Part shown: in pieces, positions 5,705-33,855 of the stretch
Layout: every line of letters starts with the position of its first letter
Position numbering within the stretch: position 1 is the stretch's first letter
Virus record (IMG/VR): IMGVR_UViG_3300021426_000007
Span: 1-64,000 of that record
Source of the DNA: a virus
Lineage: Duplodnaviria; Heunggongvirae; Uroviricota; Caudoviricetes
DNA: 64,000 bases
Reading direction: 5' to 3' (one strand)
The notes under the pieces: model-generated
The model's database searches: none
Told to the model about the DNA's origin: nothing
Seen by the model: the letters and a program-made list of their open reading frames with translations, nothing else
Program-made: the position numbers and the translations under genes

Positions 5705-5786
5705 TGCCGGAGAGGGGACTCGAACCCCCACGGATTTCTCCTTCAGATTTTAAGTCTGACGCGCCTGCCAATTACGCCACTCCGGC
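5705..5786 (-). tRNA. tRNA-Leu (anticodon TAA), long variable arm
   Basis: Manual fold of the reverse complement: acceptor GCCGGAG/CTCCGGC, anticodon stem-loop TCAGA-CTTAAAA-TCTGA, T-loop GGTTCGAGTCC, extended variable arm. Confidence 0.75.
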
Positions 5787-5976
5787 TTGTGCGCTTGCCG
5801 CTTAGATTGTCACTCCGTTCAACTCTACGGTTGCGTCCAATCCAGGGTTGGTTACCATCTACCACCATTACGTTGTCCCCATATCGCCGGACCTACCTGG
5901 CAGTTTTCAGCGACCATTATCATTCTCTGTGAGGTGCTGCGCTAACGCTCACATCATCCGGGCGCGACCCGGCCTC

Positions 5977-6071
5977 TGGCGGAGTGACTGAGACTCGAAC
6001 TCAGACACGGATGTTCCTCCGTTACTCCTCGATTAGCAATCGAGTGCCTTACCAATTAGGCTTACCACTCC
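5977..6071 (-). tRNA. tRNA-Ser (anticodon GCT), long variable arm
   Basis: Manual fold: anticodon stem-loop CTCGA-TTGCTAA-TCGAG, T-arm CTGAG-TTCGAGT-CTCAG, 3' CCA encoded. Confidence 0.7.
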
Positions 6072-6078
6072 ATATAAA

Positions 6079-6152
6079 TGCTGTCGGTTGGACTCGAACC
6101 AACGATCGCCCGATTATAAGTCAGGAGCTCAAACCATCTGAGCTGCGACAGC
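6079..6152 (-). tRNA. tRNA with anticodon TAT (Ile, AUA-reading)
   Basis: Canonical cloverleaf: acceptor GCTGTCG/CGACAGC, D GCTC/GAGC, anticodon stem CCTGA/TCGGG loop CTTATAA, T GTTGG-TTCGAGT-CCAAC. Confidence 0.7.
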
Positions 6153-6449
6153 ATGTAATACTCCGGGGAAGACTCGACTCGTTCCACTGCCGCCAGAAGC
6201 GACTACTCTACCATTTAAGCTACCGGAGTATACGTGTGTGGGATTTCGGACATACCTTCACCCACGCGGCTTTGTTGTTTCATCCCGCGACTCTACTGGG
6301 AGCCAGCTGCCATGGGGCCGAAAGGAGGTGGGGGTTCGCGTACCCACCAGCGAAAAGAACAGAGCCAGTTATTACTTCTCGCTACCATGATTACCAAAAA
6401 TACCTGACTGCCATTGGACTTCGCGACAAGTCCGGCGATGACACATAAA

Positions 6450-6521
6450 CAGAGCCGACAGGATTCGAACCTGTGATGGAGGAGTCAAAGTCCTCTGTGT
6501 TACCGACTACACCACGGCTCT
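6450..6521 (-). tRNA. tRNA-Gln (anticodon TTG)
   Basis: Acceptor AGAGCCG/CGGCTCT, anticodon stem GAGGA/TCCTC loop CTTTGAC, T-arm ACAGG-TTCGAAT-CCTGT. Confidence 0.7.
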
Positions 6522-6526
6522 AGATA

Positions 6527-6545
6527 CGGGTGGGATATCCCACCC
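6527..6545 (-). terminator. hairpin GGGTGGGATATCCCACCC downstream of gene 6553..6798
   Basis: Perfect 7-bp stem inverted repeat between gene end and tRNA cluster. Confidence 0.4.
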
Positions 6546-12357: not shown

Positions 12358-12865
12358 CGCACCACGGGCAGAACCATCCGGTACTTACTACAGTAGCTGG
12401 CTTGCCACACCCAATGCACGTCCGCCGAGATATGTCCTCGTACTTCGGAATGATCACATTGATAATCCGATCAGTTGCGCCCATACAATAGAAGCGGAGG
12501 ACTGCATACTTCTCTTTGATCTGCGTAATCCAGAAGTCATCGACACAGTCATTAGCTACAAGGTCATTCATGATCTCCTGCATCATGTCCTCACCGAAAG
12601 CGATTCGCCAACCATCCGGCATGTCATCGAGTTCGGTATACTCGAAGTCATACTCCGGGTGCTCTTCCGATGTACCGGGCCAGTAACCTTCCTCTCCATT
12701 CGGACCGCAGCAGTCGGTGATCTTCTTACCGGAAAACCTGTTGCGCGGAATCAAGAAGGGGAATCTCTCGCAGAGCTCTCTGTTCCTCTGCTTGGTTTCT
12801 TCATCTGTGAGAACATCCACATCATTGATGCGCGAGTTCTCCATGTCTGAATACATTCCCATCAC
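12275..12865 (-). CDS. hypothetical protein (196 aa) with CxxC...CPWCDEC cluster
   Basis: ORF track. Confidence 0.45.
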   Translation of the reverse strand: MMGMYSDMENSRINDVDVLTDEETKQRNRELCERFPFLIPRNRFSGKKITDCCGPNGEEGYWPGTSEEHPEYDFEYTELDDMPDGWRIAFGEDMMQEIMNDLVANDCVDDFWITQIKEKYAVLRFYCMGATDRIINVIIPKYEDISRRTCIGCGKPATVVSTGWFCPWCDECAGEILGSHVPIDEFYEPYEGVRHD

Positions 12866-14299: not shown

Positions 14300-14659
14300 T
14301 TGAGAAAGGGGGACGCCGCTGTGCCCGAGTTATCTGAATTGTTGGTTCGAAGAAGAAAAGATCTACACTTGACGCAGGAAGAAGCCTGCAAAAAACTAGG
14401 TATATCAAGAGCCTCTCTCGCTAACTATGAGTGCGGGAAGTTCAAACCAAAAGCACAGAATGCACGTCGTATCTCAGAAGTCTACGGCATCCCTCTCGAA
14501 ACCATCATTCGCAGTGATGATCTAGACGACGAAGATAGTACGTCATCTAATATGCAGGTTCTCTTTAACGAATTAAAGGGAGCTTCGGAAGAGGACATTC
14601 AGAAGGTAATCGAAATCGCCAGAGTCATCCGCAGATCGAGCGGAGGCAGAGAGTGGTAA
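14300..14659 (+). CDS. XRE-family HTH protein (Cro-like candidate)
   Basis: LTQEEACKKLGISRASLANYECGK HTH; probable true start GTG 14321 behind AAAGGGGGA RBS. Confidence 0.65.
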   Translation: MRKGDAAVPELSELLVRRRKDLHLTQEEACKKLGISRASLANYECGKFKPKAQNARRISEVYGIPLETIIRSDDLDDEDSTSSNMQVLFNELKGASEEDIQKVIEIARVIRRSSGGREW

Positions 14660-19910: not shown

Positions 19911-20012
19911 TAATAAATTTCTTTTGAGACCGGACAGGATGTCGAGTCCTGCCCACGCACCATGCCTGACTCCTGTTTATACTCGCATGGTCGAGTGTGT
20001 TATCAATCCTCC

Positions 20013-31711: not shown

Positions 31712-32452
31712 ATGCCCGGTGGTATTAATTTAGCGAGCAAATATAGTCCTATCGTAGACGAAAGATGGACTTTTGATAGCCAAGCACAGCTCGCACTTGG
31801 CGCAAAATACGATTTTACTGGTGAAAAAACTGTCAAGGTGTACAGCATTCCTATTGCTGTGATGCACGACTACGTTCGTGGTGGCATGACTCGTTATGGC
31901 ACTCCGGATGATCTCACCAGAAATGTTCAGACCCTTACGGTGACTAATGACCGTTCCTTTACGTTCATCATCGATAAGGGCGATAAGCTGCAAAGCGAAA
32001 TGGTAAGCGATGCCGGTCAATCTTTGGCCCGCCAGCTCAAGGAAGTTGTTGTCCCTGAGTTCGATACCTATTGCTTTAAGGTTCTTGCCGAAGCCGCTCA
32101 GGCAGCTGGTGGCTATGCAACTACCGCAATCACTAAGGCTAATGCTTACGAGATGTTCCTCGCAGGTCAGGAGTACCTTGGTGAACACAATGTCCCCGAC
32201 GCAGGTCGTGTGGCATTCTGCACCTACAAATTCGCCAACTTCATGATGCAGGATCCTGCTTTTGTCAAGTATTCTGACAAGTCCCAGGATATGGTCATCA
32301 AGGGTATCCTTGGCGAAATCGATGGGTGCAAAATCGTTAAGGTTCCGTCCAACAGACTCCCGGCTGGTGCTGCATTCCTTATTGCACACTCCGATGCTGC
32401 TGTCGGCCCGAAACAGCTCGAGGATAGACACGATTGTCCTCTCGCGGCGTGA
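31712..32452 (+). CDS. major capsid protein, 5' exon (P22-coat-like), interrupted
   Basis: Only 246 aa before stop; continuation in another frame 1 kb downstream after a GIY-YIG gene; exact splice point not determined. Confidence 0.5.
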   Translation: MPGGINLASKYSPIVDERWTFDSQAQLALGAKYDFTGEKTVKVYSIPIAVMHDYVRGGMTRYGTPDDLTRNVQTLTVTNDRSFTFIIDKGDKLQSEMVSDAGQSLARQLKEVVVPEFDTYCFKVLAEAAQAAGGYATTAITKANAYEMFLAGQEYLGEHNVPDAGRVAFCTYKFANFMMQDPAFVKYSDKSQDMVIKGILGEIDGCKIVKVPSNRLPAGAAFLIAHSDAAVGPKQLEDRHDCPLAA

Positions 32453-33417
32453 TCCGCGATAAATAAACCGGGTAAAATCGGTAAAGGCTAAACTGCTTTA
32501 TAATTAATAGGAGACAGCTAATTGTATACAGTATATTGCCATACAAACAAGGTTAATGGGAAAAAGTATTTTGGAATAACTAATAGGACTCCGGAGAAGA
32601 GATGGGGTCCGAAAGGACATAGGTATTTAAAAAAGGCAAAGGGCCAATATGTTCATGCGGCCTTTGCAAATGCTATTCTGAAATACGGTTGGGATTCGTT
32701 CGAACACGAGATTCTTTTTGAGGGTTTATCTCTTGAGGAAGCTAACCAGAAGGAAATTGAATTGATCGCTCAGTATAAGACAAACATCGTCCGGTATGGA
32801 AATGACTACGGCTATAACATGACGGATGGCGGAGATGGCTGTACGGGCGGTTTTCATTATTCCGGGAAAGAGCATCCTATGTATGGAAAGCACCAGAGTG
32901 ATGAGGCTCGTAAAAAAATGCATGAGCACTGGAAAGAGTTCTACTCTGATCCTACACATTTCACTCACAAGGGCGAGAATGCTACTTTTTATGGGAAGCA
33001 TCACACAGAGGAGTCGAAGAAAAAGATAGGCGCGGCTAATAGTGGGGCGAACCACGGCTTAGCTAGAAGTGTCTTGTGTGTAGAAACAGGAGAGGTTTTC
33101 CCAACATTAAAGGCAGCGGCTGATGCCTGCGGCGGCTTTCCTTCCAATATAGGAAATGTGTGCCGTGGCAAACGACCGACGATGTATGGGTATCACTGGC
33201 GATATGCTGACGAAAAAGCAGCAAGCTAATACCGAGGTAAGCATAGGAATTAAATCGCCTATGACACCGTAACGCGTACCAGGTGGAACTACGAAAGTAG
33301 ATGGATAACCCTGGCAAGAGTATCCGGCTTCCTACTATTTATAGAGGAAGATGATGTACGCTGAACTTATGGGAAACCATAAGAGCTACAGGATAAAAAG
33401 CCTGTAGGATAACAATA
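32453..33417 (+). mobile_element. putative group I intron carrying a homing endonuclease gene
   Basis: Non-coding flanks with hairpins (CCAGG..CTACGAAAGTAG..CCTGG, CTACAGG-ATAAAAAGC-CTGTAG); frame changes between the capsid segments; boundaries approximate. Confidence 0.5.
32522..33229 (+). CDS. GIY-YIG homing endonuclease with NUMOD3 repeats
   Basis: VYCHTNKVNGKKYFGIT GIY-YIG core; two NUMOD3-like motifs HPMYGKHQSDEARKKM and TFYGKHHTEESKKKIG; own RBS TAGGAGA. Confidence 0.85.
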   Translation: MYTVYCHTNKVNGKKYFGITNRTPEKRWGPKGHRYLKKAKGQYVHAAFANAILKYGWDSFEHEILFEGLSLEEANQKEIELIAQYKTNIVRYGNDYGYNMTDGGDGCTGGFHYSGKEHPMYGKHQSDEARKKMHEHWKEFYSDPTHFTHKGENATFYGKHHTEESKKKIGAANSGANHGLARSVLCVETGEVFPTLKAAADACGGFPSNIGNVCRGKRPTMYGYHWRYADEKAAS

Positions 33418-33855
33418 TTGTATCGTATTCATGACGATCCCCCCGGAATCTCCGGTTGGCTCGTGGAAGGACGCACCATTTATGATTGCTTCGTTCTTAA
33501 CGAAAAGCGTCATGCTCTGTACTTCCATGGCGGACAGTCTGTATTTAAGACCCTCGAAGCCATGTCTGCTGCAACTGCCGTTGGTAAGACCACTCTTATT
33601 GTTAACGGCCGGCTGAATGCAACCGGCAACAAGTGGTACTACATGACCGCTGCTGCTGCATCCGGTCTGACCGCAATCACCTACGGCACTGCAATTACTA
33701 CCAGTGCATGGACCGAGATGAAGGACGCTTCCAACAACCCGATCAACTATGTCGAGATTACTCCGACCTCTGGTCATACTGTGGCCCGTATCGTCGAAGT
33801 CGATTCTGCCGACAAGCCGGTCGGCTTTGCGGATGTCATCCTGAACATCGGCTGA
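33418..33855 (+). CDS. major capsid protein, 3' exon
   Basis: Frame open from 33397; C-terminal capsid-like segment ...YVEITPTSGHTVARIVEVDSADKPVGFADVILNIG; listed TTG start is an ORF-finder artefact if spliced. Confidence 0.5.
   Translation: MYRIHDDPPGISGWLVEGRTIYDCFVLNEKRHALYFHGGQSVFKTLEAMSAATAVGKTTLIVNGRLNATGNKWYYMTAAAASGLTAITYGTAITTSAWTEMKDASNNPINYVEITPTSGHTVARIVEVDSADKPVGFADVILNIG

Follow-up and report, generated by a model that had tools for sequence, protein, structure and literature searches.

A very probable mobile group I intron in the major capsid gene of a Caudoviricetes phage, and its relatives in other phage genes

Group I introns that carry homing endonuclease genes are a classic arrangement in phage late genes, and their splicing proceeds by an established two-step, guanosine-initiated transesterification. 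In mycobacteriophage LittleE the capsid gene holds an 819-bp insert with an HNH gene, for which splicing was shown by reverse transcription PCR and N-terminal sequencing, and the capsid gene of the lactococcal phage Tuc2009 contains a group I intron (PMC3706429). Three further introns interrupt ORF142 of Staphylococcus phage Twort (AF132670) and are labelled 'group 1 introns' in GenBank; PMC3984707 cites Golden et al. 2005 for the crystal structure of one of their ribozymes, I2. Here we describe a comparable locus in a stretch of 64,000 nucleotides (nt) from a virus of the Caudoviricetes (IMG/VR record IMGVR_UViG_3300021426_000007, positions 1 to 64,000), referred to below as the window.

The major capsid gene of the window is interrupted by an insert at positions 32426-33420, which is very likely a group I intron. 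The evidence supports a mobile intron of type IA, the type typical of phages, at a site between residues D238 and Y239 of the capsid protein. The splice-site rules, the fold, the covariation and the existence of intron-less alleles agree on a group I intron with a homing endonuclease gene in a phage late gene, which had been proposed in an initial annotation of this DNA, made from its letters and open reading frames (ORFs). Since capsid-gene group I introns have been published for LittleE and Tuc2009, the window intron is of a kind already known, and it leaves the current understanding of group I introns unchanged. It belongs to an IA-type family that occurs in at least 120 viral contigs and is undetected by the Rfam group I model RF00028, and a capsid motif is a hot spot of insertion among relatives.

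The interrupted capsid gene and its exon junction

The first capsid ORF (ORF1, 31712-32452, 246 residues) matches the major head protein family phrog_422 with an E-value of 9e-46 over profile positions 4-218 of 297. After a gap of 965 bp, between positions 32452 and 33418, follows a second ORF of 145 residues (ORF3, 33418-33855), whose frame differs from that of ORF1 (31712 mod 3 = 2, 33418 mod 3 = 1) and whose first residues match the end of the same profile (positions 255-293). These two ORFs had been described correctly from the ORF map; the figure of 965 bp stands as the distance between them and not as the size of the insert, which is 995 nt. No Pfam family was found for the capsid fragments or for the spliced protein, and PHROGs and the names of homologues were used instead.

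A homologue search with ORF1 yielded 2316 proteins at E <= 0.001, and the best 120 of these 2316 were examined. Most of the 120 are about 375 residues long and, where the source gives any name, are called 'N4-gp56 family major capsid protein'; the earlier label 'P22-coat-like' is not adopted here, and within the window only the portal protein matches a P22 family. More than 100 homologues of about 375 residues are unbroken and run KQLEDYRIHDD through the point of interruption (wider context AAVGPKQLEDYRIHDDPPGISGWLVEGR). In the window, KQLED is followed in ORF1 by RHDCPLAA and a stop, and ORF3 begins (M)YRIHDDPPGISGWLVEGR. Both the last eight codons of ORF1 (RHDCPLAA) and the TTG 'start' of ORF3 thus belong to the intron. 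The last base of exon 1 is T32425 (GAT, D238), the insert ends at G33420 and exon 2 begins at T33421, and the junction cannot be shifted, because the bases flanking each boundary differ. Alignment with uninterrupted homologues, which had been suggested as a check, thus gives a unique junction with U as the last base of exon 1 and G as the last base of the intron, both as predicted. The two exons are (^ marks an insertion point here and below):

31712..32425, plus strand: capsid exon 1, codons 1-238, ending CAG CUC GAG GAU, defined by phrog_422 and by homologues reading KQLED^YRIHDD
33421..33855, plus strand: capsid exon 2, codons 239-382 plus stop, continuous with the homologues (YRIHDDPPGISGWLVEGR)

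Joined, they form 1149 nt in frame that encode 382 residues, in place of the approximately 390 estimated before, and the peptide across the ligated-exon junction of the predicted spliced protein reads ...QLEDYRIHDDPPGISGWLVEGR. Residues 11-240 of this protein align, with weak sequence similarity, with residues 11-237 of the 273 residues of gp6, a solved capsid protein (PDB 8e16). The interruption therefore lies inside the capsid core, and a functional capsid protein would need ligation of the exons. The annotation should accordingly be changed to a single 382-residue capsid protein, join(31712..32425, 33421..33855), that absorbs both fragments.

The C-terminal part of exon 2 (33580-33855, about 90 residues) gives a weak, sub-threshold match to PF18316, the C-terminal domain of S-layer protein SbsC (22.7 versus 26.6 bits). 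This extension may represent an Ig-like domain that is joined to the core of the capsid protein and decorates the surface.

The stop codons in the insert, one of them at 32450-52, and the change of frame in exon 2 exclude an intein, which requires one continuous frame; on this the initial annotation was right. Other types of interruption, namely programmed frameshifting or bypassing and a group II intron, have nothing in their favour beyond the existence of the interruption itself. At 995 nt the insert greatly exceeds what bypassing could span, neither a reverse transcriptase ORF nor a group II match in Rfam was found, and the order of helices described below is that of a group I intron. We consider the probability of any of these alternatives to be practically negligible.

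Structure and conservation of the insert

The insert, together with its exon flanks, contains helices P1 to P9.1 in the order of group I introns, with the P4-P6 and P3-P9 domains (listed in PMC3984707). The individual elements, all on the plus strand, are as follows.

32426..33420: very probable group I intron, subgroup IA-type, 995 nt, beginning AGAC and ending GAUAACAAUAUUG; bounds taken from contigs L133 and L135, which are intron-less at this site
32420-32425 with 32436-41: P1, exon GAGGAU with internal guide sequence GUCCUC, 6 bp, G32436-U32425 forming the U·G pair at the splice site
32430-34 with 33422-26: P10, ACGAU with exon-2 AUCGU, 5 bp starting from exon-2 position +2, directly 5' of the guide sequence
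32442..32459: P2 hairpin, UCGCGG-CGUGAU-CCGCGA, found in the minimum-free-energy fold of the ORF-deleted intron
32468-74: P3 5' strand, CCGGGUA; 7/7 P3 pairs with compensatory change
32478-82: P4 5' strand, UCGGU; the family alternates between UCGGU/ACCGA and ACGGU/ACCGU
32486-89: P5 5' strand, GGCU, from RNAalifold and pair counts
32493-99: P5a 5' strand, CUGCUUU, covarying in L002 (CUACGU/ACGUAG)
32522..33229: GIY-YIG/NUMOD3 homing-endonuclease gene, 235 residues, TTG start, Shine-Dalgarno sequence AGGAG at 32509-32513, in the terminal loop of P5a
33215-21, 33224-27 and 33231-35: 3' strands of P5a (AAAGCAG), P5 (AGCU) and P4 (ACCGA), from RNAalifold and pair counts
33236-37 with 33267-68: P6, GG with CC, enclosing P6a; pair types include GC, CG, AU, UA and GU
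33242-47 with 33258-63: P6a, CAUAGG with CCUAUG; 8/8 pairs with compensatory change
33269..33278: R-like element GUAAC-GCGUA, comprising J6/7 and the P7 5' strand GCGUA (33274-78); does not vary within the family, having served as search pattern
33279-83 with 33310-14: P7.1, CCAGG/CCUGG; 98% of cells paired, 5/5 pairs compensatory
33289-33300: P7.1a, CUAC-GAAA-GUAG, inside P7.1; with it forms a composite hairpin, 33279..33314, between P7 and P3'
33321-27: P3 3' strand, UAUCCGG; P3 crosses P7, with which it would form a pseudoknot of the group I type
33328-33 with 33345-50: P8 hairpin, CUUCCU with AGGAAG, from RNAalifold and pair counts
33351-56 and 33357-61: J8/7 AUGAUG and P7 3' strand UACGC, read from the sequence and followed by UGAA
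33366-83: P9, CUUAUGG-GAAA-CCAUAAG, 100% paired, with compensatory changes
33386-33407: P9.1, CUACAGG-AUAAAAAG-CCUGUAG, 95% paired, with compensatory changes
Tail after P9.1: GAUAACAAUAUUG, ending with the omega-G at 33420

The guide region (32430..32441) thus consists of the P10 guide, one U and the internal guide sequence. J3/4 and J4/5 are AAA each, J5/4 is AAU, and CAAGAG sits between P7.1/P7.1a and the P3 3' strand. L004, L007, the second intron of L008, and L005 have hairpins at the place of P2, the loop being CGUAAU, AGUAAU or AGCAAU. The counterparts of the R-like element are GCAAC-GACUA in Twort and UUAAC-GACUA in the Streptococcus thermophilus phage CHPC1042. GCGUA (33274-78) and UACGC (33357-61) of P7 are complementary and cross P3, and the G-binding pair presumably lies in this helix, although its identity is assigned by analogy. 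The extra P7.1/P7.1a hairpin between P7 and P3' places the intron in subgroup IA. In the classification reported by Michel and Westhof 1990, subgroup IA is characterised by extra pairings between P7 and P3', either P7.1/P7.1a or P7.1/P7.2. P7.1 and P7.2 are named as class features in PMC3984707.

Several tests point to a conserved RNA structure. The 3' 216 nt of the intron fold with a z-score of -4.1, and none of 200 shuffled sequences folds as well; single-sequence folding of the ORF-deleted intron gives P2, P3, P4, P5, P5a, P6, P6a, P7.1, P8, P9 and P9.1. For comparative analysis an alignment (A3, n=34) was made of the window intron, four other ORF-bearing copies with trimmed loops and 29 naturally ORF-less copies. 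Unguided RNAalifold recovered P3, P4, P5, P6, P6a, P7.1, P8, P9 and P9.1 from it, with compensatory changes in 41 of 50 pairs. When the full structure including the P7 pseudoknot was imposed on A3, 96.0% of the cells pair, against 69.5% after shuffling (a value as high was attained in 0/500 shuffles) and 31-42% with the partners displaced by 1-3 columns, and both sides have changed in 40 of the 53 pairs. An anchor-based parse of 70 or more instances agrees with the fold: P7.1 has 98.5% canonical pairs in 41 distinct strand pairs, and the registers of P5 and P6, noisy in this parse (67-70% canonical), are clean in the MAFFT/RNAalifold alignment. The homologues at the capsid site of the window (site A), L001 and L002, have compensatory changes in P5a, P6a, P7.1, P8 and P9.1. 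As the search pattern specified P7, this helix does not vary among the collected members; in comparison with GACUA/UAGUC of Twort and CHPC1042, GCGUA/UACGC of the window contains two compensatory pair changes. The earlier proposal of structured non-coding flanks is borne out by this group I helix order with strong covariation across relatives, and the two hairpins noted at 33270-33300 and 33385-33407 correspond to P7.1/P7.1a (33279-33314) and P9.1 (33386-33407).

From this structure we propose the following course of events. The late transcript would fold into P1 to P9.1, and an exogenous guanosine bound in P7 would attack the phosphodiester after U32425, presented by the U·G pair of P1. The 3'-OH of exon 1, held beside exon 2 by P10, would then attack after omega-G33420, so that the exons are ligated into an mRNA for the 382-residue capsid protein. 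We infer catalysis, the efficiency of splicing and the activity of the endonuclease; that the intron splices efficiently appears likely, with a confidence somewhat lower than that for its identity as a group I intron.

Alternatively, the capsid gene might be permanently split by a selfish endonuclease gene without splicing, polypeptides of about 246 and 145 residues being translated separately and assembling, for which the mobE-split nrdA of phage Aeh1 is a precedent. TTG 33418 is preceded by AGGA at 33406-09, which resembles a weak translation start of ORF3. This sequence is no evidence for a separate gene, since AGGA...UUG falls in the 3' strand of P9.1 and in a tail that the family conserves in unrelated genes. 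Moreover, the flanks adopt a group I fold supported by covariation, in which P1 and P10 fit precisely these exons, the break falls inside the core fold as seen in the alignment with PDB 8e16, ORF1 would bear eight foreign residues, and the gene is continuous in close relatives. A split without splicing is therefore highly unlikely, and the reading as a group I intron is retained.

The endonuclease gene, distribution among relatives and genome setting

The endonuclease ORF has Pfam matches above the cut-offs for GIY-YIG (PF01541, 27.6 bits, cut-off 22.6) and NUMOD3 (PF07460, 42.8 bits, cut-off 20.4) and matches phrog_314 'homing endonuclease' with an E-value of 3e-45. Motifs that could be read in it include Y-TVY..KYFGIT, EKRW, KEIELI and GYN, and the homologue in L001 has an ATG two alignment columns from the TTG of the window. 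A GIY-YIG/NUMOD3 gene with its own ribosome-binding site (AGGAG) had been recognized before; the description 'free-standing' does not apply, as the gene lies inside the P5a loop of the intron. Enzymes of the phrog_314 family have been reported inside group I introns of the Bastillevirinae (PMC11878797). Like enzymes of the I-TevI type, that of the window has a GIY-YIG domain, followed by NUMOD3 repeats and a C-terminal DNA-binding region, and is encoded in the loop of a phage group I intron. A phmmer search of PDB at E<=0.01 returned no solved I-TevI chain, only a 66-residue protein that matches the C-terminal part. With its last codons and its stop the gene runs into the 3' strands of P5a and P5; translation and folding of the ribozyme may therefore, speculatively, interfere with each other.

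At this capsid site the intron is present in the window and in L001, L002, L003, L006 and L008, and is absent from the exact site in L133 and L135. Near-identical copies were found in the independent contigs L003 and L006, the former with an exon 1 that is 98% identical. L133, from the same metagenome (3300031867) as the intron-bearing L006, has an exon 1 that is 88% identical in DNA and a product (P0001) with 96% amino acid identity to ORF1. The intron-less site reads GAGGAC^TACCGC in L133 (capsid stretch CAGCTCGAGGACTACCGCATCCACGAC) and GAAGAC^TATCGT in L135. Presence and absence are thus polymorphic at an identical site, as expected of a mobile (homing) intron. The D238 codon is GAU in the intron-bearing alleles and GAC in the two intron-less alleles examined, and the third base of GAU supplies the splice-site U·G pair with its U. 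We propose that the I-TevI-like GIY-YIG/NUMOD3 enzyme would cleave the capsid gene of co-infecting relatives that lack the intron, near GAGGAC^UACCG, and that repair from intron-bearing genomes would copy the intron into the cut allele (homing).

The plus strand of the window encodes a terminase, a P22-type portal protein, a scaffold-like ORF, the capsid gene and an SU10-type adaptor, and the minus strand DNA polymerase A, a DUF2800 nuclease, an RNA ligase and an SNF2 helicase. A megablast search of GenBank phages with the whole locus gave no match, and in 'distant' mode the matching was confined to the short 3' core. Two other RNA features were observed on the minus strand: a Pistol self-cleaving ribozyme at 19925-19996 (RF02679, 51.5 bits versus a gathering score of 34.5, full-model match), also kept in the related phage contig L008 at 14404-14475, and a cluster of four tRNAs at 5705-6521 (Rfam tRNA, 52-68 bits) that adjoins the replication module.

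Some points weigh against a functional group I intron in the window. The Rfam covariance model RF00028, a search with which had been suggested as a check, has no match in the window at the gathering threshold, nor over 32200-33700 at E<=10, and it also misses the naturally ORF-less relatives L005 and L010. The window row of alignment A3 had its ORF removed computationally, the support for P7 comes solely from its counterparts in Twort and CHPC1042, splicing is deduced from sequence, and the endonuclease has a TTG start and an activity assumed from family membership. The missing Rfam match and the indirect case for splicing would fit a decayed intron that no longer splices, in which case the capsid gene would be a pseudogene and the phage genome defective or mis-assembled. 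However, the window retains every invariant column of the 34-sequence alignment with fully paired helices, the copies in L003 and L006 are near-identical, the endonuclease ORF is intact, and so is the structural module with terminase, portal, scaffold and adaptor. We consider decay very unlikely, and an intact group I intron remains the preferred explanation.

The probable intron family and its relation to known introns

An exact search with the 3' core identified eight viral contigs, and a looser R...S pattern search of IMG/VR at least 120, with insertions in capsid, terminase and other genes. The family, defined by GUAACGCGUA...GUACGCUGAA and found in contigs including L005 and L010-L129, is represented by 96 distinct instances from these searches, many of which are naturally ORF-less (approximately 230-300 nt) and others ORF-bearing. 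A second copy was not found within the window. The GAUAACA...UUG tail is kept in all members, whatever gene lies downstream. Proposed marks of the subclass are P7 GCGUA/UACGC, a single P7.1/P7.1a whose UGAA...AUAUAA internal loops are conserved, and the P9.1 loop GAUAAAAAGC.

In relatives at other sites, the bases 9-10 nt into the intron are complementary to the last bases of their own exon, and the splice-site pair is always U·G. Examples of such guide pairings are GUGGGGU/GCCCCGC in the terminase-like gene of L005, AACCCU/GGGGUU and CAUCGGU/GCCGAUG for the two introns of L010, GGCGAU/GUCGCC in L012 and its relatives, and CUGGU/GCCAG at capsid site B. This tracking was counted for layouts with a loop of 9-10 nt, supplemented by reading by eye, as the automatic splice-site solver was unreliable at other loci; in the window the solver under-counted P10, as it accepted only pairing that began at exon-2 position +1. 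On the minus strand of L010 (oriented approximately 12455-12760), the two ORF-less introns lie only 20 nt apart in the terminase motif LTCNP^GGVGH-R^.

A hot spot of insertion is the capsid motif LEDYRIHDDPPGISGWLVEG, where relatives use at least six distinct points within 17 codons (LED^YRI^HDDPPGISG^W^LV^EG; equivalent to 32417-32425 plus 33421-33468 in the window), as derived from the capsid homologues P0001-P0112 and loci L008, L040, L056, L062 and L133. Two distant capsid insertion sites were also found, in L004 after QSQMV and in L007 after DER. In L008 a single capsid gene contains two introns, and the site-B inserts of L008 and L133 belong to the same RNA family, that of L133 carrying an HNH ORF instead of GIY-YIG; the same ribozyme scaffold thus carries GIY-YIG, HNH or no ORF. 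Taken together, the window intron may belong to a large IA-type subclass not yet formally described, which would have colonised six or more points of a 17-codon capsid stretch with interchangeable GIY-YIG and HNH genes, suggesting ongoing intron-mediated competition between co-infecting phages; as a whole we put this forward tentatively and regard it as rather doubtful. The clustered insertion points in one conserved capsid motif provide a natural system for the study of homing-site choice and of competition between introns and endonucleases.

All family members tested (window, L004, L005, L007, L008 and L010) were missed by RF00028, which in the positive controls scored 64-101 bits for the three Twort ORF142 introns and 51 bits for the CHPC1042 intron. 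The misses are likely due to the P7 pseudoknot not being modelled as pairs, so that a change is penalised on both strands, and to differences in the R and S elements. Phage introns have been reported to be frequently missed by the Rfam and GISSD models, or matched by them just in part, and subgroup IA2 to be heterogeneous (PMC11878797). Because a widespread phage group I intron family is missed by standard Rfam screening, the annotation of many 'split' genes for capsid, terminase and other proteins in phage genomes from metagenomes is probably wrong. A second, unrelated group I intron was observed in L005, at 6322-6530, which RF00028 scores at 63.5 bits.

The Twort ORF142 introns, like that of the window, interrupt a phage late structural gene and have the order P1, P2, P3, P4, P5, P6/P6a, P7, extra hairpins, P3', P8, P7', P9, P9.1. 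The 3' part of the Twort introns (P7', UGAAC, P9 with GAAA, P9.1, xUAACAxxAUUG) aligns with the window: in both, P7' is followed by U-G-AAC and a P9 with a GAAA loop, and the Twort tail GUAACAUAAUUG compares with GAUAACAAUAUUG of the window. Overall identity is low outside this 3' core, and the Twort middle part could not be aligned to the window by MAFFT, so that the comparison is based there on the Rfam structure line for Twort and manual helix assignment. Twort has P7 GACUA/UAGUC and separate P7.1 and P7.2 hairpins, whereas the window has GCGUA/UACGC and one composite P7.1/P7.1a. Twort I2 and I3 (252 and 286 nt) contain no ORF and reach 97-101 bits with RF00028, in contrast to the ORF-bearing window intron without a score.

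The intron of CHPC1042 (Brussowvirus) and its relatives share the 3' core of the window, CUGAACUUAUGGGAAACCAUAAGA...GAUAA(A/G)AGCC...GAUAACA, with approximately 84% identity over 55 nt, and a similar 5' start with AAAC..., a guide sequence and P2. It differs in its Twort-like P7 (GACUA/UAGUC) and in P4, which is why it just reaches the RF00028 threshold, and it has no endonuclease gene and lies in a terminase, not a capsid gene. In the CHPC1042 record (MH937494.1; our locus L130), the gap at 1203-1490 between two coding sequences annotated as 'terminase large subunit' is this ORF-less group I intron, unannotated in the record.

The LittleE and Tuc2009 introns differ from that of the window in their hosts and capsid families. 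The LittleE endonuclease is of the HNH type and transcribed in the opposite direction, while that of the window is GIY-YIG. LittleE nevertheless resembles the window in carrying a homing endonuclease, and in all three phages the insert in the major capsid gene is of the group I type, follows a U and ends in G.

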